Shown: in pieces, positions 34,921-64,000 of the stretch
Layout: each line of letters opens with the position of its first letter
Numbering within the stretch: position 1 is the first letter of the stretch
Source of the DNA: Tubulanus polymorphus
Lineage: Eukaryota > Animalia > Nemertea
DNA: 64,000 nucleotides
NCBI RefSeq assembly: GCF_964204645.1
Contig: NC_134032.1
Coordinates: 2,752,175 to 2,816,174, forward strand
Direction: 5' to 3'
Notes under the pieces: generated by a model
Database searches by the model: none
What the model saw: the letters and a program-made list of their open reading frames with translations, nothing else
Told to the model about the DNA's origin: nothing
Made by a program: the position numbers and the translations under genes

Positions 34921-35429
34921 CAGTGGAACCTCGTTAGTACGATTTGTGCGATGGAAAAAAAACGTGAGAGTCGCAGAGGCCGTATGGTTAAAGCCGCCAG
35001 TCATTGGTCTCGTCAATCCAGGGTTTATGGGTTCGAACCCTGGTGGCGACAGCGTTTCTTGGTCAAAGGTTCTTCTCTGGTCTCTCCCCCATTGGAAAAA
35101 GAAACATCGAACCCGCTCATAATGACCGTACTAACCGAATTTCGTAGTAACCCTCGTAAAACAAATCCTCAATTACCTCAATATTTCATCTTTAGCTTAA
35201 AACGCCGTATCATACTCCTGCTATTTGTTTTCACTGTCACTGTCAATTTAAAAAAGGGAACTCAAGTGGACGATAGTACTAATAGTCTTTATTTACTATA
35301 GAAATGAATAGGAGATCGTGAAATTTTTACATCGTATTACCGGGAATTTCGTATTAACGTGATTGCGACTAAGCCAACATTTACCGGTATACAATTTTTT
35401 TCGCTGCACGCCGAATCGTACTAACCAGG

Positions 35430-35430
<1 letters not shown>
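34921..35430. mobile_element. Tigger/pogo-like MITE in GPCR intron 1, interrupted by a tRNA-derived SINE
   Basis: TA|cagtggaacctcgttagtacga at the left; inverted cgtactaacc motifs at the right, ending at a (TA)n tract. Confidence 0.5.
34970..35050 (+). mobile_element. tRNA-derived (Ser/Leu-like) SINE head or tRNA pseudogene
   Basis: GTCGC...GCGAC acceptor-like ends, A box AGGCCGTATGGTTAAAGC and B box GGTTCGAACCC. The anticodon arm does not fold canonically. Confidence 0.6.

Positions 35431-35482
<52 letters not shown>
35431..35482. repeat. (TA)26 microsatellite
   Basis: Read directly. Confidence 0.95.
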
Positions 35483-35485
<3 letters not shown>

Positions 35486-35553
35486 TTCTAGTGAAGGAAA
35501 GCCCAATAGAAGGGAAGAAGGCTTCGATTGTGGTTCGACTGTGTTGTACTTAC

Positions 35554-36755: not shown

Positions 36756-37246
36756 ACCGAACAACGAATACGTGACCGAATAAGCAAAATAATTAGAAAT
36801 TCTAGTTCTGATTTCGTTTCGTCGAACACCAACTCGACGCTAATTACAATTCCTCCAATTACGCGTTACTGCAAAGACACGAAATGAATATTTTTCTTTC
36901 CAGCTGCAATTATTTCTATTAAATAAAAAAAAAAACTGGTTTAAATTTTCAACTAAATTTCGCATACGCCCCAGAGTATTACCCGTAATTGGCTATGTTT
37001 AAAAAGATATAGACGAATACGTGGAATTCGTTGCGATAATCTTATCAGAACTAACACTAAACCAGAATAGAGGTTGATAGCATCTACGGGCCTTTTTAGC
37101 TTGAAACACGGAGAGCATGATTAAACCACCACTGACGCATTCACTTTATCGAGAATATTCTTCATACTTTTACTCTTGATATCTTAACAGACTCGCATGA
37201 AGGCATTCGATGGTCACTGCCGTTGTTATCACGGGTTGTGACTTCA

Positions 37247-40300: not shown

Positions 40301-40726
40301 TAGGCTTTTCGGAGTGCACTTTTATCAATGGATGACGATTCTTTGCGTTATTCCTGTCGCTGTTTAGACCCGGTAATTATGCGGGATTAATTCATAATAG
40401 ATTACTTTACGCAAATTCGAAACGGTCAGGCGCTGAGTTATATTTCTGGCAGAATTTAAAATTACGTTTATAAGCTGTTGGTAGTCGAATCTGAGAGGAG
40501 TTACATTTTATGAAAAATTTTTGGCTGGAAAGTGGACCATTTATAATAATAATAATATTCAACAGGAATACAAGAGGGTTTCTGCGAAAGCAGCAGAAAC
40601 CCTAAATATTCACGTCGTGTGTATATATCATTTACGTCACCGGCAGTTGTGTCGCAGAGGTCTAATAACGGCCACATCGCATTTACAAAATAATTACGAC
40701 TCAAGAACTGCGTCTCACTTACATCA

Positions 40727-40967
40727 GAAAACATCGCTTTGAATTACATCAAACCTGACAGAAAACATCGTCTTAAATTACATCAAACCTGACAGAAAAC
40801 ATCGTTTTGAATTACATCAAACCTGACAGAAAACATCGTCTTGAATTACATCAAACCTGGCAGAAAACATCGTCTTGAATTTCATCAAACCTGATGGAAA
40901 ACATCGTCTTGAATTACATCCAACCTGACAGAAAACATCGTTTTTCAATACATAACATCGTCTTAAA
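40727..40967. repeat. Minisatellite, 34-bp unit (gaattacatcaaacctgacagaaaacatcgtctt)
   Basis: About 6-7 head-to-tail copies with no unique spacers. Confidence 0.9.
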
Positions 40968-43036: not shown

Positions 43037-44685
43037 ATAAGTTAATGCGGAGCCACAGAAATATCTTTTTTTTCGTTCAAACGACCTTTCGCTTGAAAAT
43101 TCTTTCGTCGGAACAAAATTTATTTCATTCCAACCAATGATATTCTTTTCGATTGAACCAATTTGAAAAAATCGTTAGAACAAAGTTGAACAAACTTTTT
43201 TTGTCCAAACGAAAGGTTTTTCGTTCGAACAATTGTTCGATCGAACAGAATCGCTTTAATTTGAACATTCGTTCGAAAAGATTTTCATTCGAACTAGTAT
43301 ATTGTAAAAAAATTTTTCAACCAAAAGTATTAAGTATTTCGACAATCGAACAGAATTGTTTTCATTCAAACATTCGTTCGAAAAGAATTGTTTTCGCTCA
43401 ACCAGATTTTTTTGCAGGGACAAAATGTGTTTCATTTCAACAATAACAAAGCTTTTCATTCGAATACATTTTTATGTCATAATGAAGAAAGTTTTGGTTC
43501 AAACAAAAAGCGTATTGTTCGATCAAACAGAATTGTTTTCACTCGAACAAGATTTTCTTGTCGGAACGTTAAGTTTTTTGGTCGAACAACGTGTAAAGTT
43601 TGTTTTGGAAATTTACTCGGTCTGGTATATATTGGATTACTGTGTATGTCATTTGCCAGGACATTAAACAGAAGACGGGTTAGGACCTTGCGTGACTCCA
43701 CTAGTTAGACCGACTTATTCCAAGATGAGGCGTTCCGTTGATTTCGGCTACAAGTTTTCGTTCAGAGATAACTTCTGAGCCATTTGGGCGACTTATCATT
43801 GATACTGTTTCCTAATAGCCTGTTTAGTAATGGCTGATGTTGTGCCTTATCAAATGCTTTGTCGAAATCCACCGTTGAACAGGATTCTAAGACTGTGCAG
43901 AAAACCCGTTATCGCTGCTTTGCAGCTATATTTTAGTTTTGATTTTAATTTATTTCAGAGAAAAGCAGAAGATTAAAATTACAATAATGTTAAACAATTC
44001 AAATAAGAGAGAGAATCTTCGTTTTTAGATAGTGGAATTCGTCAACGGAACACAAGCTCACTTTGTATTATTCAGTAATGTTCAAAATGTTTGGGCTGTA
44101 TGGTCCGAATATGGGAACCAGAAAATCCACTTTAACAAAACATCGCCTCCCAGTGAGATCAACTCTATTCAAAATGAAAGCCCTATCTCTCAATTCAGAC
44201 AACTACAAGCGTGCAGGTGTTTGGTTGAATGTGTTTATATTACAGTCGACTATAAATTATAATTGTTAGAAGAAGAGACTTATTCTACTGCATTGTTCAA
44301 GTCCAGTATCTTCTTCTTCATGTTTTCTATTTAGGGATACATTTTTTCCAAGCGATTTTTATACTAATTGATTTAGTTAGGTGCTCTAGGCAAAATGTTC
44401 AGGCAATTGGATTTCAGAAATTTGAACAATACGAGCTGTGAGGATGTGTTGGACCAATCAGACTGAAACACCATGCGCCTTTCGTACGTACGCAGTCCTA
44501 GAAATACATTTGGGGAGTGTTAAAATCTTTGGGAAAAAGCCAATGAAAATTGTATTTATATATGACATGATTAGTTTAAAAACCAATCAGATTTTTAGAG
44601 GTTGGTCCAGATTTCGGAATGCACATATAATCAGTATTTTGGTGTCATCCGCCGCATTTAAATGAGAATTTCATCAGACGAGATC

Positions 44686-45012
44686 ATGAACGCGATCAAC
44701 ATTTTACTGGTCGGTGTTTTCTGTTCCGTCGTCGCTGATGCGGTTTTAACCGAGTTCCGTATTCAACAATTCACTCGACTGCCAGAATGTTTGATAGGCG
44801 ACAAACACCGCGAGATAAACTCACAAAACTGGGCGAAAACAAACCACGTGATCGCAAACAGAAATGTTCAAAACATCATCAAGTGCGCTCGTGATTGTAT
44901 GAAAGATCAGAAATGTTCGGACATGTCGTTCAACGGAGGATATCGTTACCTGTATGACGTCAACACCGACTACGCGTGCAGTGCCATCAACGGCATAACC
45001 AAGTACTACAAG
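44686..45012 (+). CDS. Exon of a secreted PAN/apple-domain protein
   Basis: Signal peptide MNAINILLVGVFCSVVADA; PAN-like VQNIIKCARDCMKDQKCSDMSF...YLY (last Cys appears as Arg); ends at donor AAG|gtaggt. Confidence 0.55.
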
Positions 45013-45820
45013 GTAGGTTCATTCAAATACTAAATATCAAGTAAATTACAGTAGACATAGTAACAATTTACTGAATGCATTCTTAGAATTTTAAAAATCT
45101 TTCAACGCAAAAAGAAATGATCCAGTTCAATAACTGTTACAGTAAACTTTGAACTTGATTTTTAGACTCCTGTGTCCATATATTATCACAGCACCCACCA
45201 AATATACAACACATTATACGAATAATCGATTCATTTAAGCGAAGAGTTCATTCAGATTTAATTGAAATGTAGAAGGAAATTGAACGTTGGCGACCAACTA
45301 TCTACAAGCGACACCTGGCGCATCCTCGCCTGCCATACGTGGAATCCTCGATTGCGACAGTAGCGGTGCGGGTATCTAATTAAAGCAGTTTATCGTAACG
45401 ATTTTACTTGTTTAAAATTGGATGCAGAATAGTGCGAGGTCGGGACTCGAAACTAACAAATGTGGCTTGGACTCTTGTTTTTGAAGTTGTCATTCAAAGA
45501 GTTAGTTCGTTGATGAGATATAGAACTGTTATAACTGAAATGTACCGTCCTCGTCAGTCTTTACAGTATGATATATACTTTCTATGGTCTTGCGCTTTAG
45601 GGAAGTCTATTTTTCATGATATTATGACATCAGTTAGTATAAAGTGACTTATAAGTCTTAATTACGGGTGGGTTCTAAATCTATGTATTAATATGTGATG
45701 TACAAGTCACTATAATAGATAGATAAGTAAATACATGAAAAAAATAAAATATTACGTTTCTGTCTCTTAATGCAAAATGATTTCGTGAATTAATACGTTT
45801 ATTATTAACATTTGTTTCAG

Positions 45821-46119: not shown

Positions 46120-46530
46120 AGTAATAGGGGTAATGGGCTTTCAAGCCAAAGGTCGAACGGTCGAGCTCATTAAAAAACAAAACATTAAAAGTAATTTAAA
46201 ACTATAATATATTTTCATTACCGTGTGTATTTTATATTATAACTAAATATTTATTCTAAGATATTAATAATTTTAATTTTAAAAGCATATTGTATTAAAT
46301 CAATTGGTCGCTCCACTTCGCTACCGCTCCGCTCCGCGACCAATTGATTTATTTACAATACGCAAATTCATATAATCAAATATATTTTAATAATAATTAT
46401 TATTCTATTATTCAACTGAAATACACACGGTTATGAAAATATATTATAGTTTTAAATTACTTTTAATGTTTTGTTTTTAATGAACTCGACCATTCAACCT
46501 TTAACCTGAAAGCCCATTACCCCTATTACT
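46120..46530. repeat. ~410-bp imperfect palindrome at the left edge of the viral region
   Basis: agtaataggggtaatgggctttca... pairs with ...tgaaagcccattacccctattact. Inner stem taaatcaattggtcgc/gcgaccaattgattta surrounds a GC-rich loop centred at ~46323. No TSD found. Confidence 0.85.
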
Positions 46531-46736
46531 CTTAAAATATTCATGTAAATGAATAACATTTAAATTGACAGATTATTCAATATAAAAGTATATATTTACA
46601 ACATTATTTCAATATTCATATTTGTGTGAGTTAGATTTTTAAACATTAAAAGTGTTAGTAAAGTGTGATTGAAATAATACATGATATAAATCATTGAACT
46701 TCTAAAATCAATTTTAATAAAAAATTTAGTATTAAA

Positions 46737-49700
46737 ATGGAAGCAAATAAGTACTACTGCCCAACATGTAATATCAATATAGATAAATCCCAAAAAGCAA
46801 GACACAATAAAACTAAAACACATTTAGAGAATAAATTGAAATTAGAATATGAAGATGATATATTAGAAACTAAATTAGATGAATTAAAGAATGAAAAAGA
46901 AACATACAAATGTGATACATGTAATCAATCATTCAGTGATAAAAGATATTATAATGAACATTTAAAATCTAAAAGTCATATTAGAAATAAGAATAATGAT
47001 ATTTTAGGTGAAGATTATTTTGATAAAGATAAGAAACAGAAGACAATTAAAAGCATAAAAAATAAATTAAACAATAAAAGGCCATACATGGAAGATGTAA
47101 GAAATTATATTAATTCATTAGATAATAAAAAAGACATAGATATAACCGAAGCATTTAAAAGTGATATTGGTCCAGCAGCTATTGAGTTTAAATTTCATAA
47201 AGGAAAAACATTAGAAGAAAATAAAAAACATTTAGAAAATATGAAAGAAATAATAAAAATAATAACTGATGTTGAATATCCTAAAATAAGTATATCTTCT
47301 AAAGTTAAATTCATAAAATCTGAAGATAAACCAATATATAATATAAATTCTCATTCACAACATATTATATCTAAACAACATATAGATGATAAATTAGATA
47401 AATGTTATAATGAAGTAAAAACTCAAATAGAAGAGAAATATTTTGAAGGATCTGGTTTAATATTTGATGAGATAATATTTATGACTTTACATGTTTATAA
47501 AACAAAATATAATAAGTTAACTAAATCAAAACCAATTGATGAAAATAATTTATCATATTATAAAGAACCAGATATTGAAGCATCGAGTTATATTAAACAA
47601 CCATTTAAAACTAATGCTGTAATAAATGTACAAAATGAAGATGAAAATGTTTTCTATGGGCTATAATAAGTTGTTTACACCCAGTTGAAGATTATAAACA
47701 AAATAGTTTTAGATTAACTCATTATAAACCATTTGAAAATAATTATAAGATAGATAAGTATCCTGTTATAATTAAAAACATCCCAAAAATAGAAAGAGAT
47801 TATAATATAAAGATAAATGTATTTGATTTAATCAAATTACCAAATACAAAAGGTAACAATATAAAACATTATACATTAGAACCTTTATATCTATCAAAAG
47901 ATTATGATTCAAATGATGTTATAGATATACTATATAATGAGAATCATTATATGTGGATTAAACAAATCGATTTATTTTTTAAATCAGAAAATGATCACCA
48001 TAAAATATATCTTTGTAGAAAATGTTTACATAAATTCAGTAATGAAAGTACATTATTAAATCATAAACAATTATGTGAAAATCGTGATTATTGTAAATTA
48101 GTTTTACCAAATGAAAAGGATAAAATATTAGATTCAAAAAATATGATTACAAAAATAAAGTTCCATTTGTTATATATGGAGATTTTGAATCATACATTAT
48201 ATCTAAACAACATATAGATGATAAATTAGATAAATGTTATAATGAAGTAAAAACTAAAATAGAAGAGAAATATTTTGAAGGATCTGGTTTAATATTTGAT
48301 GAGATAATATTTATGACTTTACATGTTTATAACACAAAATATAATAAGTTAACTAAATCAAAACCAATAGATGAAAATAATTTATCATATTATAAAGAAC
48401 CAGATATTGAAGCATCGAGTTATATTAAACTACCATTTAAAACTAATGCTGTAATAAATGTACAAAATGAAGATGAAAATGTTTTCTATGGGCTATAATA
48501 AGTTGTTTACACCCAGTTGAAGATTATAAACAAAATAGTTTTAGATTAACTCATTATAAACCATTTGAAAATAATCATAAGATAGATAAGTATCCTGTTA
48601 TAATTAAAAACATCCCAAAAATAGAAAGAGATAATAATATAAAGATAAATGTATTTGATTTAATCAAATTACCAAATACAAAAGGTAACAATATAAAACA
48701 TTATACATAAGAACCTTTATATCTATCAAAAGATTATGATTCAAACGATGTTATAGATATACTATATTATGAGAATCATTATATGTGGATTAAACAAATC
48801 GATTTATTTTTTAAATCAGAAAATGATCACCATAAAATATATCTTTGTAGAAAATGTTTACATAAATTCAGTAATGAAAGTGCATTATTAAATCATACAC
48901 AATTATGTGAAAATCGTGATTATTGTAAATTAGTTTTACCAAATGAAAAGGATAAAATATTAGAATTAAAAAAATATGATTACAAAAATAAAGTTCCATT
49001 TGTTATATATGGAGATTTTGAATCATTAAATAAAGAACTAACTGATCAAGATAGAAAAGAAATATATCATAAAAGAAAGAAATTAAATTCTAATGAAAAT
49101 GATTTTTCAGATGAACCACCAAAAACAAATACTATTAAAAAGATTCATCAATCAGCTGCTGCTTTCGGGTTATATATTAAATCTGATTATCCAGAACTAA
49201 TTGAAAGTGAATATTATAATTATAGAAATGAAAATGTTATCAATCATGTTTGTGACTTATTAATTGAATATGAAATAAAATTTAATGAAAAGTTAAATAA
49301 AAATATAGAAATTATAATGACAGAAGAAGATAAAGAAGCATTTGCGTTTGCAGATAAATGTTATTATTGTGAAAAGATATTTAATTTTAGAGATAAAAAA
49401 GTAAGAGACCATGATCATTTGAACGGAAAGTTTAGAGGCGCCGCACATGAGAATTGTAACTTACAAGCTAAGAAAATTAACTTTGTACCAGTTATATTTC
49501 ATAATCTATCAGGATATGATGCACATTTATTTATCAAACAGTTATGTCATAAAATAGAAGAAATCAACAATGAAATAGAAAGATTAAATTCAAATAGATC
49601 AAAAGATAAAATACCAACTTATAAATTTAGAATGTTAGCTAAAACATCTGAGAATTATATATCATTCCAATTTGGTTGCCTAAGATTTATAGATTCATAT

Positions 49701-51591
49701 AGATTTTTAAATAGTTCATTGGATAGCTTATCAAAATCATTAGTTGATGATGAATTAAAGATATTAAAATAATATTACCCAAATATTGATGATTTTAAAT
49801 TAATGAGATATAAAGGAGCAATTCCATATTCTTTCTATAAAAATCATAATGATTTTAACATAACTGAATTATTAAAAGAACAATTCTATGATGAATTAAA
49901 AAATGAATATGTTAAAGATGAAGTATATAATAGAACATTGAATATTTGGAATCATTTCAAAATAGAAAATCATGGACAATTAGTAGATTTATATCTAAAA
50001 TCAGATGTATTATTATTAACCGATATATTCGAAAGGTTTAGAGATGTAAACCTAAAATATTTTAACATTGATCCTTGTCATTGTTATTCAAGTCCAGGTT
50101 TAACATGGGATTGTGGATTAAAATTTACAGATATAAAAATGGATTTGTTAACAAATATAGATCAATTACTATTATTTGAAAAATCTATAAGAGGAGGAGT
50201 TTCAGGTGTATTAGGGGATAGATATTTCAATGTAAATGATAACCCTGGATACAAGTTATTATATATAGATGCAAATAATTTGTATGGTTGGGCAATGATG
50301 GAACCACAACCTTATGGAGTATTTGAATTAACTGAAGTTTTACAGAATGAAAATAATGATAAATTTGATTGGAAGAAAAGAATTCTAGATATTGCAGATG
50401 ATTCAGATACTGGTTACTTCTTTGTTGTAGATTTAGAATATCCTGAAGATAAAAAATTTAAATCTAGAAATCTAGCTTACTGTCCCGAACATAAAACTGT
50501 AACTCATGAAGAACTATCAAATTATCAAAAAAGAATTAAACCCGAAAATCATATTCATACAGAAAAAATAATGGTAACTCAGGAAGATAAATATAATTAT
50601 GTAGTACATTACAGAATGTTAAAGTTTATTTGAATCAAGGAATGATTATAAAAAAAGTACATAGATATATTTCATTTAGCCAATCTAAGTGGTTAGAAAA
50701 ATATATAGATTTTAACACCAAACAGAGAACTGAAGCTAAAACTGATTTCGAAAAAGATTTCTTCAAGTTAATGAATAATGCATTCTATGGTAAGACTTGT
50801 GAAAATATTAGAAATAGAAATGATATTGAGTTAGTTAGTAATGGTAAAAGGATAAGGCATTTACAATTTTTAGGTAACAGAATATTTGATGAAAATTTAG
50901 CTGCAGTTAAAATGAGAAGAACATCAATGAAATTTAATAAACCAATCTATGTTGGTGCTTCAGTTTTAGAATTATCAAAATTACTAATGTATGAATTCTA
51001 TTATAATGTATTACAACCACTTTTTGGAGAAAAACATATAGAAATATTATATTTTGATACCGACAGTTACATATTAAAGATAAAAACTGATAACATAACA
51101 GATGATTTAAAAACATTAAAACATCATTTTGATTTTAGTAATTATCATAAAAATCATGAATTGTTTTGCAATGATAATAAAAAAGTTCCAGGGAAGTTTA
51201 AGGATGAATTAGGTGGTGAAGAAATGATTGAATTCATTGGTATTAGATCTAAAATGTATTCATATAAAACTAAAGAACATAAATCTAAAAAGTTAAAAGG
51301 AATAACCAAAAGTGTAGTAGAAAAAAGAATATTCATTTCAAAGATTACATCAATTGTATATTCAATGAAGAAGTTAGAAAACATAAGATGAGATGTTTAA
51401 GATCTGAAGATCATGAAATGTTTATTGAAGAAATTGAAAAGATAAGTCTAAACCCATTTGATGATAAAAGATATATTCTGGATGATGGAATTCATACAGT
51501 TGCTTATGGTTGCAATTTAGATGAATACTTAAAATTTAAAAGAGAAGAAACAAAAGAGAACGAGATAATGAAAAGAATTCTAACGTGTTAA
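46737..51591 (+). pseudogene. polB: Protein-primed family B DNA polymerase, copy 1 (intein-free), disrupted
   Basis: N-terminal C2H2-like fingers; SSYIKLP..AVINVQN; Exo motifs VIYGDFES, FHNLSGYD, LYLKSDV; Endo VII-like VRDHDHLNGKFRGAAHENCN; Pol motifs YIDANNLYGWAM, KLMNNAFYGK, YFDTDS; FDDKRY. Frameshifts at ~47650, ~50630 and ~51330, stop at 49770, and an internal 832-bp duplication. Confidence 0.92.
47363..49025 (+). repeat. 832-bp tandem duplication inside polB copy 1
   Basis: ctaaacaacatatagatg occurs at 47371 and 48203, and both units run to ggagattttgaatcat. Confidence 0.9.
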
Positions 51592-51716
51592 TCAAATTTT
51601 AATAAAAATATGTATTATAAATGGAGAGTTAAGTAATTGGGAAAGTAGGCTTTCAGATCAGAGGGCGAGAGGGCGAGACACCACTCATCACCACAAGTAA
51701 TTTTTTGTCCTAATAA

Positions 51717-54700
51717 ATGGGAGAGAATGAACACCAGCCAGAAAACAATAATGTTAATAAAAATCAATATTATTGCCAATATTGTAAAAAATACATCGAT
51801 ACATCTCATAAAACACGACATGAAAAAACTGCAAATCATATAAAAAATGTAATAGATTTTGAAACTCCAGAAAATTCCAATGAAAGAAAAGAAAGATTAG
51901 AAAATATGAATGTGGATGAAATAAAATATGAAGTTTGTAATGAATTTATAGTAAAAAGGAATTATAATAGACATCTCGAATCACAAAAACACCGCCAAAA
52001 TTTGAGTAATAATGTTTTAGGAAAAGATTATTTTGACGATAAACCTCAAAAAGTAAAAAACCAACTTCAAAAACTAAATCCATTTCAAATAAACCTTACA
52101 TGGAAAATGTTAGAAATTATATTGATTCACTAGAAATAAAAGATACAATTGAAATTTTAGAAACATTACATAGTAAAATTGGTCCTGCAGCTATTATATT
52201 TAGATTTTTTAAAGGTACAACAATAGAAGATTATAGTACATTTAATGAAATAATAGAAAAATTACTAGATTTGATAACAGATGTTGAATATCCAAAAATT
52301 AGTATCTCTGGGAAAGTAAGTTTTATAAAGTCAGAAGAAAAAATGAATTATAATATTCAAACACACTCTGAAGAAATAATTTCAAAAACACAAATAAAAG
52401 AGAAGTTTGAAAAAATATTTGATGAATTTAAACGTCATATTGAAGAAAAATATTTTGAGGGTTCTGGCTTAACATTGAACGAAATTATATATTTAGATTT
52501 AAATGTTTATAATACAAAAAGGAATAAAACATCAAAAAGTAATAAAATGTTTAAAAATGATTCAAACTTTACAACAGAAAAGGATATTAAAGCATCATCT
52601 TATATTAAATTACCATTTACAACAAAAGCAGTAATAAATGTTCAAAATGAAGATAATAAATGTTTTCTATGGTCAATTATTAGTTGCTTACATCCATCAC
52701 AGGAAAATGTTTGTAGAATAACAGATTATCGGAAATATGAAACATTATATAAAATTGATCAATATCCAGTAACTATAAAAATGATTCCTAAAATAGAAAA
52801 AGTTAATAATTTAAAAATAAATGTATTTGAATTAATGCAATTACCAAAGACAAAAGGTGAAAATATTAAAGATTATACATTGGAAGCTTTATATTTAACA
52901 GAATATTATGATGATGAAAATGCTATAGATTTGTTATATTACAAAAAAGATGAAAATGAACATTATATGTGGTTAAAACAAATTGATTTATTCTTTAGAA
53001 CAGAAAGTGATCATCATAATAAAATTTATCTATGTAGAAAATGTTTATCTAAATTTATGACTGAGAATGCGTTACTAAAACATAAAGAATTATGTGATAA
53101 TAAAGATTTTTGTAAATTAATAATGCCAACAGAAAAAGATTATAAATTGAAATTTACTAATCATAAATTTAAGAATATTGTTCCATTTGTAATTTATGGG
53201 GATTTTGAATCGTTGAATAAAGAATTAACTGATCAAGATAGAAAAGAAATATATAACAAAAAGCAATTATTAAAATCAATGGATAAAGGAAATGAATTAA
53301 ATGAAGACGCAACACAAGACCCACCAATTATAAATACAATTAAAAAAGTTCATCAAAGAGCTGCTGCTTATGGAATTGACATCATATCAAATTATCCCGA
53401 ATTATATGAAAGTCAATATATTTCTTTTAGAGGTGAAAATGTAGTTAATGATTTTTGTGATAAAATGATTGAATTAGAAAGTGATTTTACAAAATTATTA
53501 AACAAAAATAAAAGAATAGTTATGACAAAAGAAGATGAAATCGATTTTAATTATGCAACTCATTGTTGTTATTGTGAAAAACGTTTTTATTCATTTGATA
53601 AAAGAGTTAGAGATCATAATCATTTGAATTCAAAATATCGTGGAGCTGCTCATGAAGATTGCAATTTACAAGCTAAAAAAGTAAATTTCATACCAATATT
53701 ATTTCATAATTTATCAGGATATGATACCCATCTATTTATAAAACAATTATCGGGAAAATTGGGCGCAATTAATCAAGAAATAGAAGAATATAATGCTATG
53801 AATGAAGCAAATGTAAGAAAATATGATTTTAAACTATTAGCTAAAACATCTGAAAATTATATTTCATTTCAATTTGGTTGCATTAGATTTTTAGACTCTT
53901 ATAGATTTCTAGCAAGTTCATTAGATAATTTATCAAAAAGTTTAGTTGATAATGATTTTGTTATAACTCGATATTATTATCCAAATGAACAAGATTTTAA
54001 ATTATTGAGATATAAAGGCGCAATTCCTTATTCATTTTATAAAACACATGATGATTTTAATGTAACAGAATTATTAAAAGATCAATTTTATGATCAATTA
54101 AAAGAGGAGTATGTGAAAGACGAAGTGTTTAATAGAACATTAAATATTTGGAACCATTTTAAGATGAAAAATCATGGCGAATTAGTTGATTTATATTTAA
54201 AATCAGACGTTATGATATTGGCTGACATATTTGAAAAATTTAGAGAAGTTAATTTGAATCATTTTAATGTTGATCCTTGTTATTGCTACTCTAGTCCTGG
54301 TTTAACCTGGCAATGTGGTTTAAAATATACAAATGTAGAATTAGATTTATTAAAAGAACCAGATATGGTTTTATTATTTGAAAAATCAATTAGAGGTGGA
54401 ATTAGTGGTGTTATGGGAGATAGGTATTTTAAAGCAAATGATGAATATAAATTATTATATATTGACGCCAATAATTTATATGGTTGGGCAATGATGCAAC
54501 CTCAACCATATAAAAATTTTATATTAACAGAAGTTGAAAATGGTGATAAAACTGATTGGGAAAACGCAATTGCGAGTTTAAAAGATGAAGCACCAATTGG
54601 TTATTTCTTTGTAGTTGATTTAGAATATCCTGAAAATATAAAGTTTAAAACAAGAAACTTACCTTATTGCCCAGAACATTTAACTGTAGATGAAGAAAAT

Positions 54701-56736
54701 AAAACCGAAAGATCATGTTTTTACAGAAAAATTAATACTTACTCAAAATAATAAATACAATTATATTGTTCATTATAGAATGTTAAAATTTTATCTAAAA
54801 CAAGGAATGAAATTAAAGAAAGTACATAGATATATTGAATTTAATCAATCGAAGTGGTTAGAAAAATATATAGATTTCAATACTCAACAGAGAACCATAT
54901 CAAAAACAGATTTTGAAAAAGATTTCTTTAAATTGATGAACAATAGTTTTTATGGAAAAACATGTGAAAATATTAGAAATAGAAATGATATTGAATTAGT
55001 AAATAATTCTGAAAGATTAAGACATTTACAATCAAGTCCTAGACATTTAGGAAATAAAAGATTTGAAGATTATTTAACAGCAGTTAAATTAAAAAGAACA
55101 TCAATGAAATTTAATAAACCTATATTTATTGGTTCGACTGTTTTAGAAGTATCAAAATTATTAATGTATGATTTTTATTATAATGTTTTACAACCACTTT
55201 TTGGGGAAAAGCATATTGAAATATTATATTTTGATTCTGTAACAGCTGACACCCCAATATTATTAAAATGTAATAATAAAATATTGGTAAGAAGAATTTC
55301 AGAAATAATTCAAAAACAAAATGAATGTTATATTTCATATGGTGAAAAAGAATTAATACAAATAAATGGATTAATGGATGTTTGGACAAGAAATGGATGG
55401 AAAAAATTAAAGAATATTATTAGACATAAAACAAATAAGAAAATCTATAGAGTTAGAACTAAATTAGGATTTGTTGATGTTACAGAAGATCATAGTTTAA
55501 TTAAACGAAATGGTGATGAAATAAAACCAACTGATATAAAAATTGGAGATGAATTATTACATAAAAGATTTTCCCCAAGAATGAATCATATGTCATTTGA
55601 TGAAATAATTGATAATATTTATAATATAGAACCCGAAACATTTGAAGAAAAAGAATATTCTATCAAAGGATTTTTCATGGGTGATGGTTCAGCAGGTGTG
55701 TATAATTATGTTAATCGCACTCAATATTGCTGGTATTTATGCAATCAAGACTTAAAATTATTAGAAAGAATTAAGAAATTCTGTGAAGAAGTTTATTCAC
55801 ATAAAACATTCAAAATCATAGATGTTATGAAATCATCGCAATGTTATAGAATACATGTGAATAATCCTAAAGATTTTGCTATAGAATATAATGATGAATT
55901 CTATATTCATGCAATAGTGAAAAGTAATACTTCGACAAAAGAAAAGATAGTTCCAGATTATGTATTGAATGCAAAAAATAATTTAAGAAAATGGTTCTTC
56001 ATTGGGTTCTATGCTGCAGATGGTTCAAAAAGTTTCAAAAACCGAAAAATAATATCTTTAGCTCAAAAAGGAAAAGTTGCTATATCAGGATTAAATATAT
56101 TATGCAATTCATTAGGTTTTAATATGAATATTGGATTGATTAAATCTAAACAAAATTGCTTTAATTTAAGCCATGTAGAAAATGAGTTAACTGAAGAAGT
56201 TAAAGATTTATTTGAAATATATAACCCAACAGATTATGTTTATGATTTATCAACTGAAGATGGTACATTTAACTGTGGATTTCCATTAATAGCGGTCAAT
56301 ACTGACGCCTACATACTAAAAATCAAGACAAACGACATAACAAAAGACTTAAAAACATTAAAACATTATTTTGATTTTAGCAATTATCCTAAAGATCATG
56401 AACTATTTAGCAATGATAATAAAAAGATTCCTGGTAAATTTAAAGATGAATTAGGAGGTGATGAAATGATTGAATTTGTTGGGATAAGAAGTTAAATGTA
56501 TAGTTACAGAACAAAAGATCATGAAGCTAAAAAGTTAAAAGGAATAACTAAACATGTGGTTGATAAACATATAGAATTTCAAGATTATCAATTGTAATGA
56601 AACACAAAATGAATTGTTTAAGATCAGAAGATCATGAGATGTACATTAATGAAGTTGAAAAAACTAGTTTAAATCCATTTGATGATAAAAGGCATATTTT
56701 AGATGATGGTATAAAAACATTACCTTATGGCCATTA
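51717..56736 (+). pseudogene. polB: Protein-primed family B DNA polymerase, copy 2 (intein-containing), disrupted
   Basis: Same domain order and motifs as copy 1 across ORFs 51717-52133, 52100-54751 and 54690-56495. Frameshifts at ~52060 and ~54698, stop at 56493, C-terminal SLNPFDDKRHIL at ~56665-56702. Confidence 0.92.
55236..56300 (+). mobile_element. Intein (355 aa) with LAGLIDADG homing endonuclease, in polymerase motif C
   Basis: YFD|SVTADTPILLK ... DVTEDHSL (block B TxxH) ... KGFFMGDGS and IGFYAADGS (two LAGLIDADG helices) ... YVYDLSTEDGTFNCG (block F) ... IAVN|TDAY. Removing it restores the YFDTD motif seen uninterrupted in copy 1. Confidence 0.93.
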
Positions 56737-58047
56737 AAACATAAAATCAATATCATCATACTCGAAATCACTATTGGCTTCTTCATTTTCATTTAATTGT
56801 TCAGGTTCTTCTTCCATTCCATTTTTCTCATTTAAATAAAGTTCTATCTTGTTCCACATTTCATCTCGCTCTCTTTGTTTCTTTTTGTTTGTTAATTCAT
56901 CAAATGGAATTATAATATCTAGGTTTAAATAATTTACAATCTTAATTAAAAAGAATTCATAATTTATTGAATCTGTTATTCTATTTTCCAAATGATACAT
57001 TAATATTTGTTTGAATATTTTTTTTATATTTTTCATATCTTCTTCTGTTAATTTAGGTTTTTCATAATAATCGTTAAATAATAAATATAAATACATTTTC
57101 TTTTGTTTTGTGTTAAATGTTGATGGAATAATTGTTTTTATAATATCTTTCTTAGTTATTTCACCATTTTTATTTTCTATTATTTTCATTTTTTCAAGCC
57201 ATTGCATATATTCTGGTGTATGATCTTCTATAGAAAATATTTTAAAAATTTCATCAAGATAATTTAATTTTGGATCTATGAGAAAATCTCTAGTTTTTTC
57301 TTCACCCAATAAATTCTTTTGCCATCCACAATCAACACAAAATAACACAGTACCTTCTTGCCTTAAGGTCGCATAAATACATTGTGGACATTTTCGTTTA
57401 TAATTTATTGGTAATAGATCTTCATTAAGCTCTTGGTATTTTCTTACGTTTTCTTTATGTTTTATTGTTCTATTATGTAGATTTGAATTACTTGTTGTAA
57501 TAATCAATTTACAATATTTACAATAATATGTTTTCTTGTTAATTCATTATATTGTTTTTCTAACTTTTCAACTGTTTCTTTATTATCTGGTAACGTTTTC
57601 TCATATTTTATTTTTTCTAATAAACTATTTTTTCTTTCATTGAATTCAGTTTCAAATTTATTAGAAATTTTATCTATATGTACTTTGCGAAATTGATGAT
57701 TCTCCCAATCTTCTATATTTTCACGGTTATATTTTTTTCGACAAGGCTCATAGAAATGATCTTTTATATTATCCTTATCATAGAATAAGAAAGGTCTTTT
57801 CCAAATAACTTCAGGTTCAACTTCAGCAGAATTACTATTACTTTCATTACTATCAACATTAGCCGTTGCGCCATTAATTCTACACTTCTCTGAATGTTTT
57901 TAACATAATTTCTTGAGAATAATTTATTACATTTTGGGCAGTTTATTTTAGGGGGTTTATAATTTTCTTCATGTTTTTTCATATGTCGAGCCATATTACG
58001 TTTCTTAGAAGTTCACCACAAATTTCACATCCTATCTTCTCATCCAT
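56734..58047 (-). pseudogene. Poxvirus/NCLDV VLTF3-like (A2L-type) late transcription factor with N-terminal zinc fingers; 5' half frameshifted
   Basis: Zn ribbon CPQC...FCVDCG and C-terminal SINYEFFLIKIVNYLNL...TNKKKQRERDEMWNKI resemble the VLTF3 pattern Y.YVL.K...LL...LK..K....D.IW.KI. Upstream TAAATG start MDEKIGCEICG...RHMKKH and CPKC in shifted frames. Confidence 0.7.
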
Positions 58048-58115
58048 TTATTAAGGAAAAATTTTATTAAAATTAATTTTTAGTGATGAGCGGTAATTTT
58101 TTTATGTTATAAATA
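58048..58115. promoter_or_regulatory. Compact divergent promoter region (VLTF3-like gene / penton)
   Basis: Minus strand has AATTTTAATAAAATTTTTCCTTAATAAATG; plus strand has TAATTTTTTTATGTTATAAATAATG. Confidence 0.65.
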
Positions 58116-58874
58116 ATGGTAGAATTAAAAGAATACAGAATATTTGTTGATTCTAGAAAACTTACAAATTATAAATCACATAATTTACTAGTACAATTAG
58201 ATAGAGAATTTAAGAATTGTGTTGATTTAAAATTAGTTAATATAAGTTTATGTAATTCTTTTTACAATGTATCGGATAAAAGTTTTGATCATAGAGACTT
58301 TTTAATTCATATTAGAAATATAAATAAATGGTTTCAACTAATTTTAAAACCAGGGTTATATAATTTAGAAACATTAGCCCAAGAAATTAATCGGAGAGCA
58401 CGATTAAAACTTAAAAGTGAAGATAAATTTTCAATTAGATTTATAAAAAGTGATAGTTCTAATAAAATTAAAATAAAGTTAGATGATGAAAACAAACATG
58501 CATTTATTGTAAGGAAACCTTTAGCTAAACTGTTAGGAATTAAACCACAAATTGTTACAGGAAACGTAGACGGTAATTCAAATATAATACCTTTTACACA
58601 TTTTTATATTTATTGCAATTTAATCGAGCCTACAAAAACATTTGAAGCAACTAAAGATACAACATGTAATTCTAGTATATTAAATATTTTACCATTAAAA
58701 AATGTTAAACAATTTGGAACGCAAATAAATTATAATTTAACAGAATGTGATTTCAAACCATGCATTCCTCGTTTTAATAATTTTAGATTAGAAATTAGAA
58801 ATCATAATGGATACTTAATTGATTTAAATAATTTCCCTGTAATTTATGAATTAGTTATAAGATGTAAAGAGTAA
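58116..58874 (+). CDS. Minor capsid protein (penton, single jelly-roll)
   Basis: IFVDSR...LVNISLCNSFYNV...PGLYNLETL...LAKLLG...YIYCNLI...LEIRNHNGYLIDLNN...ELVI matches the Polinton/virophage penton pattern. Intact 252 aa. Confidence 0.8.
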   Translation: MVELKEYRIFVDSRKLTNYKSHNLLVQLDREFKNCVDLKLVNISLCNSFYNVSDKSFDHRDFLIHIRNINKWFQLILKPGLYNLETLAQEINRRARLKLKSEDKFSIRFIKSDSSNKIKIKLDDENKHAFIVRKPLAKLLGIKPQIVTGNVDGNSNIIPFTHFYIYCNLIEPTKTFEATKDTTCNSSILNILPLKNVKQFGTQINYNLTECDFKPCIPRFNNFRLEIRNHNGYLIDLNNFPVIYELVIRCKE

Positions 58875-58890
58875 TTTTTCACCTATATAA

Positions 58891-59253
58891 TTGAATATAA
58901 CTGTTGGACCGAGTATATGTTTTGGGTTTGATTTTAAACGTGAGAAAGAAATGAAATTTAACATAATTGATGTAATAACACATATCAAAAATATTGCATT
59001 TTCTAATGAAATAACATTTGAGTATGAAACAACAATTGATAAAGAAACTTTAAATGTGGAAAAGATTACCGAGTCTTTAAGATTTTATGAATTAGATGAA
59101 GATTTTATCATATATGATATCAAAAACATATTATCCAAAATATATGATAATCATAAAACTAGTAATAAAAAAAATGTTGAATTAATCATAAATAAGTTAA
59201 CTAAATATTTTGAAGATAGTAATTTTTTTGTGGATAATAACTGGATTATATAA
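58891..59253 (+). CDS. Hypothetical viral protein
   Basis: 120-aa ORF whose TTG start sits exactly where the conserved promoter predicts ATG. Confidence 0.55.
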   Translation: MNITVGPSICFGFDFKREKEMKFNIIDVITHIKNIAFSNEITFEYETTIDKETLNVEKITESLRFYELDEDFIIYDIKNILSKIYDNHKTSNKKNVELIINKLTKYFEDSNFFVDNNWII

Positions 59254-59437
59254 TGGCGCATTACTATCAGTTGGAACTGTTGGTTATTCAATGGTATTAA
59301 AAAAAGTATTCAAAATGGGAAGTGTTAATGTTGATAGATTTGATATAAATGATATTTTAAAGTTAACATTAGCAGTTACTTTATCTAATTTAACTATTGA
59401 TTATTTGGAAAAACAAAAATATATTCCTCCCATATAA
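59210..59437 (+). CDS. Small membrane-associated viral protein (5' end uncertain)
   Basis: Two hydrophobic segments (GALLSVGTVGYSMVL; ILKLTLAVTLSNL). A promoter-like T run at 59220 has no matching TAAATG, suggesting a small deletion. Confidence 0.55.
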   Translation: MKIVIFLWIITGLYNGALLSVGTVGYSMVLKKVFKMGSVNVDRFDINDILKLTLAVTLSNLTIDYLEKQKYIPPI

Positions 59438-59464
59438 GAAGTGTGTAATTTTTTTGCTAAATAA

Positions 59465-59887
59465 ATGGCTTCTGCAATTATAACTATTATAGGATCGGCA
59501 ATTGTTAACGCTTTAGCATTTACTGGTGGTGGTTATTTATTTAAACATATTGATAAAAATAGTTCATTAGGAGAACAAAGAAGACATAACTTAGCGTTAG
59601 AGAAATACAATAAAGCTGCAGAAGAATATAGAGAAAAGAGACAAAACTATATGGATTACATCAATAAAGAATTATATGATCAGAAGATTTCACATAGAGA
59701 TTTTCAATCAGTTGATGATGCAATGAGTTTATATAACGCAGTAACAAATAAAGAAAAATTACATCTATACAAACCTAAATTATCAGATTATTATACCCCA
59801 AGTAAAGAACAACAGAAATATGAAATAATATGGATTTTAGGTGGAACAGTTATTGTTATATTTGTTGCTTATAAGTTTACTAATTAG
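59465..59887 (+). CDS. Viral membrane protein (N-terminal hydrophobic helix, coiled coil, C-terminal TM)
   Basis: MASAIITIIGSAIVNALAFTGGGYLF...RRHNLALEKY...IIWILGGTVIVIFVAY; has the promoter motif. Confidence 0.75.
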   Translation: MASAIITIIGSAIVNALAFTGGGYLFKHIDKNSSLGEQRRHNLALEKYNKAAEEYREKRQNYMDYINKELYDQKISHRDFQSVDDAMSLYNAVTNKEKLHLYKPKLSDYYTPSKEQQKYEIIWILGGTVIVIFVAYKFTN

Positions 59888-59906
59888 TAATTTTTTTGTT
59901 AAATAA

Positions 59907-60341
59907 ATGGAAGATAAAGTTGATAGTATTGATATTATTCCTCATGATATAAATAAAACTAAATTAAAAACATATTTAGAAAAACAAATATTAGAATTTG
60001 AAAGTGACTTAAAGATAAAAAAAAAAAAATATTTAAAAAGTAAAATTATATATTATTTGATTATAAGTGGTTCGGTTACAATTAGTTCTGTAATAACATT
60101 TCTAGCAATATTCAGCCCATTAACACCTTTAGCTATATCAATTGGTGTATTAGGATTAAGTTCAAGTGTTTTAACTGGTATAAGTTCAAAATTAAATATA
60201 AAAAGTAATAAAGAAAAAATTAAAACTAATATAAAAGCAATTAATAAATTAAAGAACACACTAGATTATATAATAAGTTTAAATGGTCATATAACAGTTG
60301 AAGAACAAGATAAATTATTAAAAGAATTAGTTAATTATTAA
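59907..60341 (+). CDS. Viral 2-TM protein
   Basis: Two adjacent hydrophobic helices flanked by basic coiled segments; has the promoter motif. Confidence 0.75.
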   Translation: MEDKVDSIDIIPHDINKTKLKTYLEKQILEFESDLKIKKKKYLKSKIIYYLIISGSVTISSVITFLAIFSPLTPLAISIGVLGLSSSVLTGISSKLNIKSNKEKIKTNIKAINKLKNTLDYIISLNGHITVEEQDKLLKELVNY

Positions 60342-60357
60342 TTTTTTAGTTATATAA

Positions 60358-61660
60358 ATGGGGTTTCCAAAAGCTTTCCAATATAATAAATCAATTAAAT
60401 ATAATATTCCGGCAATAGATTTTAAGAAAAATATTACATATAAAAATATAGTTTTAAATTCATTAACTAATTTAGAAATTTATGTTAATGAATCACAGTT
60501 TTTTATTTTTAAAATGGAAAATATATTTAATACATATGAAGTTACTTTTACTCGAGATGAATATCATATATATAAAGTAAAATCTAATATGAAATATTGG
60601 CAGAATCAATTAAATTTTGCTGTTTATTGTGCAACAACAGGATGTGGAATAAGTTGGAATGATAATTTAAATAACTTAGATAAAAATTTAAAGTATTCTG
60701 ATTTAAAATTAATTCACACAATATTTAGATTTCACACATATTTTCAAATCAGAATAATATTAAATGAATTAGAATGTCCTTTACCCGGGTCTAAATATTT
60801 TAAAGAATTGGATAATAATATTAATATATCTAAGTTTTATAAAATATGTAATGAATTTAATATAAATATTAATTCCGATTTCAGAGCGCATGGTAAATTG
60901 CAAGGTGTCGGTGAACAGTATGAAATAAAAAGAATTGATTATATGCATAGAATTGGAGCTTATCATAATTATAAAATTGATAATAATAATGGTTGGGTTA
61001 ATTTCATTTTAGAAAATGGTGAAGGTTTTACAAAATCAGGTATACAAAGAATAAATCAATCTATTAGAATTTATTTGATATGTATTTTAGGTGCGCAAGT
61101 TGAAACAAGATCACCGATAATTGGAAATGATAACACTTCATTCGATGCGCAGAAACAATTTAAAGTTTTATTTGAAGATTCAATTCATAATGATAAAAAT
61201 AGATCGATTCCAGAAAACATTATAAGATATCAAAATTATTTAGATAAATCTCATGTAAGACTTAATTATTGTATAGGCCCTAATCTATTAATTATTTCTA
61301 ATGATTTAGTATTAAAGATGGGAAACATAATTGGTTATAATAATCTAATTAAAACTGCAACAATAAATAATTCATTTGGGTTAAATGATATAAATAAAAA
61401 GATTATTACTGCTCCAAAATTAATGGAAGGTGAAAAAAATAAAAAACACATTCAATCAACTGAAACTAAAACTAAGAATATTAAATTAGATAATGATTCT
61501 AAAATAAAAGATTACAATACATCAGAAAATAATAGAACTGATAAAATTCAACATGATATAATTAAACTAAATGATGATAATAAATCCCATGAAATTTACT
61601 AAATTAGCTATAACTTGTATAGGAATTGTAATCGGAGGAATATTATATTTTAAATTTTAA
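60358..61660 (+). CDS. Hypothetical viral protein with C-terminal TM anchor (1-nt frameshift near 61597)
   Basis: 414-aa ORF with WQNQLNFAVYCATTGCGISW. The shifted frame continues TKLAITCIGIVIGGILYFKF* to 61660, and this stop overlaps the next promoter. Confidence 0.7.
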
Positions 61661-61676
61661 TTTTTTTATTATATAA

Positions 61677-63371
61677 ATGGATGTAGAAGGTGGAGAAGAT
61701 ATTGGAATGGATCCTTTTGGTGATGAACGCGGTATAAGTGATGAACCACAACCTGATTTTAATGAAACTAATATTGATAATGATGATGAATCAGCATATA
61801 ATACTAATTTAGGTGAAGATGATGATTATAATGATGATGATGATGATCCCGAATTACGTGAAAAATTAAATAAATATTTAAAAGCTCCTGAAATTGGTAG
61901 AATTTCAACTAGAAGAGAAAGAAAAGAATTTATGGAACTATTAGAAAAACAAAAAGAAAAATATCCCGATGAACCTATGGAATTATATAAAATGAAATCT
62001 AGAGTAACAGATACAATTGTTAACGAATTATTACCAATAGTTGTATTACATGAAATTGATACAGAAGATGTTGTAGAACAAATTTTTAAAGATGACCCAT
62101 ATTTCACAGATAATTTAGAATTTAAAAATGATTCATGGTATTATAATGTTAATTTAAATAACAAAATTGTATCAATTCAATTATCTAGAAAGGATCAAGA
62201 AAATATTTATGAACCTGAAATGCTAGCAAGATCTACAATTGAACGTTCAAAAGGTGGCGCAGAATTTCTAAGAATTATATGGAATGCACTCGATAGAATA
62301 AATGAAGAAGAACCAATTCCTAAAATTGATATAAACAAATATTCACCATTTAAAAATCCATTTAAAAATCCAAATCCTACTGATTTTAATCCAGAAATGG
62401 AAGAGAATAGAAATCGATTAGATAGATTAATATCTTCAACACCCGAAACATCGAGAAGAGACACTCAACCAATTGATAATTATTCAAGTCAATTACAATT
62501 AGAAAAACAAATTGATAGATTAAGAGATTCAGAAGAACTGATGAATAGTGCTGGAATAAATCGACTGCAATATTTACTAGAAAAAGGATTTCTTAATTTA
62601 ACTGATGAAGAATTAGAAGCATTTCCTGAACAAATACGTAGAGAAATTAAAGGTATACAAGTATCAGCTGATGAAATTGCTAATATTAAGATGAGATTTT
62701 CTAAAATAACCATGTTAGAAAAAGAATTAACTAATGCAGATGAAGAATTAAAACAATTAGAATTAAATAGAGATCATCAAGTAGTTTATGAAGCTGATTA
62801 TGAAAGCAGAAAGTTAGCTTTTGTAAAAGAAATAGATGATTTAGAATATAACATAAAATTACAAAAAGAAGAAAGAGATATATTATTAAAATCATATGAT
62901 CTTAATCATATTAAAAAATTAAAAGTTATTTTTAAAGATTTGTTGATAAAACCAAATTCTGAAATATAATTAAAAGACAGAATAAAGTTATTATTTAAAT
63001 TAGAAGGAATAACAGTTCTTTCAATTCTAACAGCTGTAACTATGGTATTTACAACAATTGGTTTAGCAATATCAAATGCTTTGAAATCTACTCCTACTCC
63101 CACTCCCAATAAACCAGATAAACCTCCAGGTAATAATTCTATACATGATAAAGTTAAGGATGGTTTAAAGAAATTAGCAAAATATTTATGGGAACTATCA
63201 AAGAAATCTGCTGCAGCTTTACCAGGAATTATTGCTTCAATTGTTGGTTTTATATTGAAATCTGCAGGAAACATTATTAACTTTGCTGCTGAACATATTA
63301 TTTTATTTTTAATTACAGTTGTAAGTGCTATTATTTTTGGGTTAGTAAACATGATATCAAAAAATAAATAA
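61677..63371 (+). pseudogene. Acidic/coiled-coil viral membrane protein with C-terminal hydrophobic and amphipathic helices; one premature stop
   Basis: ORFs 61677-62969 and 63042-63371 are in the same frame, separated only by TAA at 62967-62969. Confidence 0.7.
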
Positions 63372-63391
63372 TTAATTTTTTTGTTAAATAA

Positions 63392-64000
63392 ATGAGTGGG
63401 AGTTATATAAGTCCTTCTAAGAATCATAGAATATCTAATGCTATTAAAGCAGAAAGATCACATCATATAATTACTCATAACCCTTCAAATATTAATCCCG
63501 ATGAAACTTTATATGTTAGAATCCCTCGATTAACACAAAATACTTTTTATGTTCCAAATAGTATTTATTTATCGGCTGATATAAAAGTAATCGGTAATAA
63601 TAATAATTATGTCGTTGATAATGTTGGAAGATATTTGATTAAAAAATTAACAATAAAGATTGGTCCAGAAACAGTTTCCTCATTAGATGATTATAATTTA
63701 TTTATGCATTATAAAGTTGTATGGTTAACTAAAGAAAATAGAAATAATATGATATTTCAAGGAATCCAATCAGAAAACCAAAATAAATTAAGATCAGATG
63801 CTAATAGCGCAATATTAACTAATGATGTAGATAAATTGATAAAAAGTATATATGGAAGCAAATATAAAATTCCATTAGATTTTGAATTGATAAATAATAA
63901 TGCACCTTTATATAAATACGCAATTCAAGAAGATGTTATATTCGAAATAACATTTGCTCCTGTAAATGAAATTGTATTATCTAGCGTTAATAAAGATATG
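63392..64000 (+). CDS. Major capsid protein (double jelly-roll, Polinton type), 5' part
   Basis: Not in the ORF track because there is no stop. Open for 203 codons: MSGSYISPSKNHR...IITHNPSNINPDETLYVRIPRL...VPNSIYLSADI...VDNVGRYLIKKLTIKIG...YKIPLDF, matching the N-terminal jelly-roll of Polinton MCPs as I recall them. Has the promoter motif. Confidence 0.8.
   Translation, partial: MSGSYISPSKNHRISNAIKAERSHHIITHNPSNINPDETLYVRIPRLTQNTFYVPNSIYLSADIKVIGNNNNYVVDNVGRYLIKKLTIKIGPETVSSLDDYNLFMHYKVVWLTKENRNNMIFQGIQSENQNKLRSDANSAILTNDVDKLIKSIYGSKYKIPLDFELINNNAPLYKYAIQEDVIFEITFAPVNEIVLSSVNKDM

Follow-up and report, generated by a model that had tools for sequence, protein, structure and literature searches.

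A poxvirus late-type start motif across a clade of animal Polintons, with VLTF3 in one subfamily and a long palindrome in the other

The low-GC right-hand part of a 64,000-nt stretch of the genome of the nemertean Tubulanus polymorphus (contig NC_134032.1, positions 2,752,175 to 2,816,174; hereafter the window) holds two related elements, A and B, that resemble the Mavericks/Polintons (Polintoviricetes; adintoviruses). As in these, there is an AGT terminus, a family B DNA polymerase of the protein-primed type (pPolB), a likely major capsid protein (MCP), a probable penton and a multi-copy presence in an animal genome; the close relative L019 has an rve integrase, and loci with homologs of the MCP carry an A32 ATPase. 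They differ from Mavericks/Polintons in a TAAATG start with a T- or A/T-run at a fixed distance upstream throughout the clade, in a long terminal palindrome in subfamily A and in an intein at polymerase motif C. By its gene content, the element likely belongs to the group 2 Maverick-Polintons. What is new here is an animal Polinton clade with a genome-wide start motif of the poxvirus late type, with a VLTF3 gene in one subfamily and a long palindrome in the other. At stake are the mode of transcription of animal Polintons and the question whether some of them need a helper virus.

Several described systems share parts of this organization. VLTF3 genes are found in coral polintoviruses (PMC11131425, which credits Krupovic and Koonin 2016) and in some Polinton-like viruses (PLVs; 10.64898/2026.06.19.733378; PMC8502044). 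PLVs that travel with entomopoxviruses (PMC11296320) are likewise Polinton-type and are proposed to parasitize poxviruses of invertebrates, but they were found in occlusion bodies together with their helper, whereas in our case the helper is missing and the link is made through the promoter and the factor; the main text of that paper contains none of the words 'promoter', 'VLTF' and 'TAAAT'. Vaccinia late and intermediate transcription (TAAAT initiator, A2L/VLTF3) has in common with our element a T core, a 5-7 bp spacer, TAAAT(G) and, by modelling, the VLTF3 fold; unlike vaccinia, ours is an integrating virus of the 15-25 kb class, whose visible part lacks an RNA polymerase, a capping enzyme, VLTF1 and VLTF2. 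Endogenous virophages of the Mavirus type and protist PLVs are also integrated, carry pPolB/rve, have no RNA polymerase and use one common upstream motif, but they differ in their protist hosts, mimivirid helpers, other motifs and virophage-type capsid. Helper-like promoters and short terminal palindromes occur in protist virophages and PLVs (10.64898/2026.07.28.741278). The yeast elements pGKL1/2 (PMC6211774) resemble ours in having pPolB, a very AT-rich genome and a TAAAN initiator near the ATG, but they lack a capsid and an integrase and have an RNA polymerase and a capping enzyme of their own; at this initiator, as in vaccinia, slippage produces poly(A) leaders. Homing-endonuclease insertions have been noted in Polinton pPolBs (PMC11161782), KilA has passed from egoviruses to trichomonad Polintons (10.1101/2024.03.23.586382), and the end motifs of Polintons have been described in two papers whose available text has no promoter content (PMC8097293; 10.64898/2026.10.13.758929). 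No virions of animal Polintons have been observed, according to 10.64898/2026.06.19.733378. A full-text literature search, covering few subscription papers and no supplements, returned neither TAAATG promoters in animal Polintons nor a description of a 260-410 bp terminal palindrome for them.

The T-run/TAAATG start motif

The features on which the argument depends are the following.

46120..46531: left end of element A, an imperfect palindrome of 412 bp with AGTA at its start and TACT at its end
46737..51591, plus strand: pPolB-1 of element A, intein-free, broken up into 7 open reading frames (ORFs), a tandem duplication of 832 bp within it
51600..51631, plus strand: cut-off gene of element A, an A-rich run and TAAATG followed by a few codons and then by element B
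51632..51690, plus strand: left terminus of element B (AGTAAT...), without a long palindrome
51717..56737, plus strand: pPolB-2 of element B, in 5 pieces, T-run/TAAATG at its start
55236..56300, plus strand: intein of 355 aa with a LAGLIDADG domain at polymerase motif C (PF14890 and PF14528)
56734..58047, minus strand: VLTF3-like late transcription factor (predicted), broken and in pieces, T-run/TAAATG at its start
51717, 58047 (minus strand), 59465, 59907, 60358, 61677 and 63392: T-run/TAAATG sites, scanned as T5+ 4-8 nt before TAAATG

A run of five or more T's, followed after 6-7 nt by TAAATG, occurred at seven sites in the element, every one of them at a gene start. Simulated sequences (200 order-2 Markov simulations) held 1.3 such motifs on average and 5 at most, and 46 kb of host DNA held one. 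The seven sites, with their 6-7 nt spacer, fit the layout of the vaccinia late promoter, in which a T core and 5-7 bp precede a TAAAT(G/A) that overlaps the start (PMC5294985). The motif had been reported before nearly every gene; TAAATG was present at 8/12 examined starts, which supports 'most' rather than 'nearly every', with near variants at pPolB-1 and the penton gene and no motif at two small genes. It places a T at position -3 of the ATG, the opposite of the Kozak context.

We surveyed 142 pPolB loci, leaving out L018, whose start is cut. In five close loci, 14 of the 16 ORFs of at least 100 aa started with TAAATG, as compared with 27/603 in the 134 other loci that had scorable ORFs and 2/90 in those with a GC content of 0.30 or less. 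TAAATG starts are thus specific to this clade among the pPolB loci, and base composition was rejected as their cause, both by the AT-rich loci and by L022, which has the motif at a GC content of 0.44. L022 has its nearest relatives, P0004/P0005, in the same clade.

The motif was found at first genes (51717; L017 571; L021 361) and at divergent genes (58047, and L022, where the two ATGs lie 26 nt apart), and was absent where genes converge, at the ends of pPolB and VLTF3. Since it marks first and divergent genes and is missing at convergent ends, it behaves as a start signal. Two other origins were rejected: a packing of stop and start codons, with TAA as the upstream stop, because the actual stops lie 17-21 nt earlier (the intergenic gaps are 17-21 nt), and a splice acceptor, because AG follows the T-run in only 1/7 motifs. 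A scan of the exact motif against viral_contigs gave no match, and 37 giant-virus loci that we reached through the intein had TAAATG at no more than 3 of 8-9 ORFs, so that no clear helper emerged.

A second flavour of the motif, with an A-run ahead of the T's, preceded most genes of L017/L019/L020. In the window, this A-run type lies before pPolB-1 (46737), the cut gene (51621) and VLTF3 (58047), and the pure T-run type at the structural block (59465-63392); the two may mirror the intermediate and late classes of poxviruses, but pPolB-2 is of the T-run type. At L022 1884-1911, the divergent genes share a near-palindromic 26-nt spacer with TAAATG on both strands. A distant Polinton with a PF21738 capsid (L118 453-13480) started 5/15 ORFs with TAAATG and many with AATAAAATG, and may be a separate, looser case of such a start signal.

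A VLTF3-like protein, two polymerases and an intein

The protein encoded at 56734..58047 is predicted to combine a zinc ribbon with cyclin-like helices, N-terminal zinc fingers and four conserved Cys. Its sequence evidence was thin by itself: a 157-aa piece matched PF04947 with 25.7 bits (cutoff 25), while the 268-aa piece and three intact homologs had no Pfam match to that family. The structural model (pLDDT 80, four-row alignment) settled the matter. Its top Foldseek match was the VLTF3 of cowpox virus (E=1.5e-6, prob 1.00, TM 0.64), followed by MSV065 of an entomopoxvirus (E=6.9e-6) and then by VLTF3 of many nucleocytoviruses, most of the top 30 matches being annotated as VLTF3; in Atlas (0.93), 26/30 matches belonged to the Pox_VLTF3 set. 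A wide search of the Protein Data Bank (PDB) with the model returned only cyclin/TFIIB-type matches with Z<=6.6. The VLTF3 assignment of the original prediction is therefore borne out, and the modelled fold is confirmed as that of VLTF3.

Relatives of this protein are rare. Only 3 were found among 1.84 billion representatives; word-based protein searches returned none and later nothing beyond the 2 input homologs, and a scan of the alignment against viral_contigs gave no match. One of the close loci, L021, carries an intact homolog convergent with pPolB, the layout of element B. Coral polintoviruses are like element B in being animal polintoviruses with a VLTF3 gene, but the words 'promoter' and 'intein' are absent from the main text of PMC11131425, and the protein described here is distinguished from theirs by its N-terminal zinc fingers and its scarcity of relatives.

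The presence of pPolB (PF03175) was as predicted, except that there are two such genes, of two subfamilies and in two elements. They had 367 homologs, among them beetle genome proteins at 32-33% identity. In a quick IQ-TREE analysis (120 rows, one 281-column piece, SH-aLRT support only, L022 and other short loci left out), pPolB-1 clustered with L017/L019/L020 and was 86% identical to L017 over 268 columns, and the nearest row to pPolB-2 was L021 (76% over 238 columns), with SH-aLRT values of 95-98. Of the pPolB loci, 46 (L097-L142) lay within bacterial and archaeal metagenome-assembled genomes (MAGs) and are probably mis-binned Polinton or PLV contigs.

The intein of pPolB-2 had been described as of the type found in the PolB of nucleocytoplasmic large DNA viruses (NCLDVs). 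It is indeed inserted at motif C and allelic to those of giant viruses; its closest relatives, however, were the inteins of the P0008 pPolB family (47-48%), which is Polinton-type, as compared with 41% for the best giant-virus PolB intein. The junction, YFD|S...N|TD, has Ser first, Asn last and Thr at +1, as in the motif-C allele of family B polymerases, and the usual penultimate His is missing. The intein had 37 relatives in viral contigs, of which 17 carry giant-virus MAG names. Their junction read YGD|S in 25 and VGD|S in 5, and was not displayed in 7; the PDB match was PI-PkoII, through which alone the archaeal alleles were compared. The P0008 family has 136 members, and those listed sit on long contigs; intein-bearing (1537 aa) and intein-free (~1190 aa) copies coexist in it, which suggests active homing within one genome. 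The intein is a record of earlier exchange with large DNA viruses, perhaps a single event for the wider clade, and does not prove a factory shared at present.

Candidate sources of transcription

We propose, with about an even chance of being right, that a co-infecting large DNA virus of the cytoplasm, pox-like or otherwise, lends its RNA polymerase to the genes of this family, with the VLTF3 of the element as an accessory in their transcription. This reading is supported by the number, spacing and position of the motifs, their restriction to one clade, the poxvirus proteins at the top of the fold matches, the allelic intein and the precedents described above. The original prediction had arrived at a helper polymerase as well, and its promoter half is strengthened by our results; its appeal to three independent NCLDV-like traits did not survive, because VLTF3 and the promoter form one system and the intein is nearest to a Polinton-type one. 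If the proposal holds, a large DNA virus of the cytoplasm, pox-like or of another kind, should exist in the host group and could be looked for in existing DNA runs.

A more specific version, to which we give somewhat less than an even chance, is that this germline-integrated clade consists of true virophages of an undiscovered pox-like invertebrate virus, with pox late promoters on all genes, a VLTF3 of their own for taking over the late transcription complex of the helper, and ends with a long palindrome that forms a hairpin. Under the helper proposal as a whole, the integrated copies would remain mostly silent before a helper infects. Its polymerase would initiate at the AAA of TAAATG and, slipping there, give the transcript a short poly(A) leader where a 5' untranslated region is lacking, as in vaccinia and the yeast pGKL elements, and the VLTF3 of the element would join or compete in the late initiation complex of the helper. 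The linear genome would be copied by pPolB and new copies inserted by the rve integrase known from L019; subfamily A, seemingly without a pPolB-adjacent VLTF3, would use the factor of the helper or that of subfamily B. If the elements are true virophages, their endogenous copies could give animals an inducible defence against viruses, and the helper could be traced through the footprint that the motif leaves in genomes.

Several points weigh against dependence on a helper. Neither transcript starts nor the helper have been observed, so that helper dependence is itself inferred. The five motif loci are not independent, as L019 and L020 overlap and have a gene in common, and L022 joined the set after its motif had been seen. 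Co-occurrence of the motif and VLTF3 in relatives, which the original prediction put forward as a check, was found only in part: the motif is present in all five loci, and a VLTF3 homolog adjoins pPolB in 1/5 (the contigs are partial). The fold identities, only 15-22%, are too low to point to a donor lineage for the modelled VLTF3, and the first rank of poxviruses may reflect a match in length to the query. The intein, as seen above, has a closer relative in a different Polinton-type lineage than in any of the giant viruses recovered, and the right part of the element, beyond the window, may hold a transcription gene of its own. One RNA run yielded 2 partial records, which carry no weight either way on transcription.

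Mriyaviruses and ariadnaviruses, which keep VLTF3 without an RNA polymerase and are thought to be nuclear (PMC11253617; 10.64898/2026.08.29.747986), count against a helper too, and open the way to a helper-free alternative: an autonomous nuclear virus whose own TFIIB-like VLTF3 steers host Pol II to the T-run/TAAATG. The modelled protein is indeed cyclin/TFIIB-like (Z 6.1-6.5 to TFIIB, Brf1 and cyclins, below the trust threshold), and nuclear access is required for the many germline copies. These viruses, however, also keep VLTF2 (same sources), and none was seen in the visible part of our element; a start at TAAAT would leave Pol II a leader of 2-3 nt, and subfamily A loci carry the motif without an adjacent VLTF3, while the VLTF3 gene itself carries it. 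We consider such a virus unlikely, yet the main rival of the helper; if it proved right, it would reveal a minimal system in which VLTF3 directs host Pol II. A relic is improbable: here promoters, VLTF3 and intein would date from an earlier helper-dependent phase, and the element would now be mainly a transposon living on low host transcription. Most genes of this copy are broken, leaving it defective, its insertion is polymorphic, and we know of no helper for this host; yet the motif is near-exact at every start although the pPolBs of the loci differ by 25-60%, which argues for ongoing selection.

The remaining two explanations concern the motif itself and the source of the polymerase. In a compact genome, the motif could be a poly(A) signal, a U-rich element and AATAAA overlying the next ATG, or a signal for translation re-initiation. 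AATAAA is part of 5/7 motifs, and those of the structural block lie just behind the previous stop codon; however, two motifs have TATAAA, and the motif stands at first and divergent genes that have no co-oriented gene upstream and is missing at convergent ends, which makes this explanation very improbable. Avoidance of internal poly(A) signals was not seen (sense AATAAA observed/expected 1.02, 61 in 14.4 kb; ~1.0 also in the other Polinton and giant-virus sets), and T5NT was depleted alike in most sets, giving no separation of the readings. Slightly less probable still is an arrangement like that of pGKL, with a polymerase encoded in the right part of the element, beyond the window, or by a partner linear element rather than by a large virus. 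Just 12.4 kb of element B are visible, and the yeast pPolB elements do use a TAAAN initiator together with an RNA polymerase of two subunits that they encode themselves (PMC6211774). Against this, no RNA polymerase gene was recognised in the close loci, the gene set is that of a normal capsid-encoding Polinton, and the upstream element of pGKL resembles early rather than late pox promoters (PMC6211774).

Element ends, copy number and neighbouring genes

The region was initially read as one element with a left end at 46531. The palindrome and a sharp step in read depth place that end at 46120 instead, and a second terminus lies at 51632. This terminus could be aligned to the two palindrome arms at the A end as well as to the termini of L017 and L021, 494 reads of run X5 were clipped before it, and it interrupts a gene of element A a few codons past its TAAATG; in L017/L019/L020, a gene of 234-256 aa starts at the equivalent position. 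Given the second terminus and pPolB genes of different subfamilies, the region is element B inserted in element A, and does not hold any single virus with two polymerases. Element B continues beyond 64000, where its right end must lie.

Both termini begin with AGTA, as do those of L017 and L021, in keeping with the AG/AGT-type ends of Polintons. The arms of the 412-bp palindrome pair 46120-46200 with 46450-46530 and 46173-46232 with 46419-46478 (fold z = -22), and a similar palindrome of ~260 bp forms the terminus of L017 (L017 190-447). No long terminal palindrome was present at the termini of L021 or element B, and an inverted repeat was not found in 51600-51730. The palindrome of subfamily A has a GC-rich central loop and might form a hairpin end. 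According to the read data, other termini of the family probably have in common only the first 45-57 bp of it. A separate miniature inverted-repeat transposable element at 46120-46531 is disfavoured by the lack of a flank duplication, by a depth at the palindrome centre equal to that of the adjacent interior and by the same layout in L017.

In run X5, a set of raw DNA reads from a different study, depth stepped from ~65 to ~3300 at 46120, where 1851 reads had unlike, mixed flanks beginning exactly at this position, and depth across the element was ~3-17x that of the flank, except in a single bin near 62.4 kb, where it was no higher than in the flank. Together, the step, the mixed flanks and the raised depth establish that the family is multi-copy and inserted at many genomic sites, so that contamination, a possibility left by the original prediction, is excluded for the family. 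For this one insertion there was no independent junction read: none of the listed read records bridged its junction. One contig, from run X1, matches the flank as far as 46120 and then continues with different sequence, representing an allele without the insertion. The ratio of element to flank depth was ~10x higher in S1 (run X1) than in S2/S3 (X2, X5), for which extrachromosomal amplification or library bias is possible; contig depths do not equal copy numbers, and this excess was given no weight as evidence.

The genes of element B to the right of VLTF3 are as follows.

58116..58874, plus strand: probable penton or minor capsid protein, with an upstream T-run and TAAAT and the ATG displaced by 3 nt
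58951..59253, plus strand: 100-aa ORF with no assigned function and without the motif
59253..59444, plus strand: small hydrophobic gene, broken
59465..59887, plus strand: small protein of membrane type, conserved in Polintons, motif at start, 33-37% identical to L038, L039, L098 and L102
59907..60341, plus strand: protein with two transmembrane segments, weakly SLATT-like (PF18142 E=0.0088, below cutoff), motif at start, homolog in L118
60358..61656, plus strand: conserved Polinton gene, broken near its end, motif at start, 35% identical to a gene of L039
61677..63371, plus strand: acidic/coiled-coil protein, hydrophobic towards its C terminus, probably a single broken gene, motif at start
63392..64000, plus strand: likely MCP, N-terminal 203 aa, running off the window, motif at start

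The MCP assignment is likely: PF16903 matched below cutoff (E=0.0017; weakly in 3/4 aligned members), and homologs at 33-35% identity adjoin Pox_A32 ATPase genes in three loci (L039, L098 and L076). A PDB sequence search gave no match to the MCP, nor did a scan of the MCP piece and alignment against viral_contigs. For the gene at 58116..58874, phmmer found matches in L005, L040 and L056, and Atlas linked it to nameless viral clusters (0.98), an indirect support for the penton that had been claimed; identity by fold could not be upheld with a single-sequence model of pLDDT 29.5, too poor for the purpose. The gene probably encodes a penton or minor capsid protein.

The GC content falls from ~0.38 to ~0.23 near 46 kb and stays low to the window end. 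Upstream of the element, a receptor gene with low-density lipoprotein receptor class A (LDLa) repeats, leucine-rich repeats (LRRs) and seven transmembrane helices (7TM), and a Mutator-like transposase, identify the window as animal DNA; LDLa-LRR-7TM receptors are typical of invertebrates. The receptor gene (30115..36792, minus strand) has very long open exons, and its upstream part appears by eye to contain lectin-like and CUB-like stretches. The transposase (18214..20088, plus strand; PF20700) is interrupted by a stop codon. A tandem repeat with a 34-bp unit occupies 40691..40962 in at least 6 overlapping in-register copies, and just outside the element a 123-aa ORF (44662..45033, plus strand) has a signal-like start and a weak match to the PAN domain.

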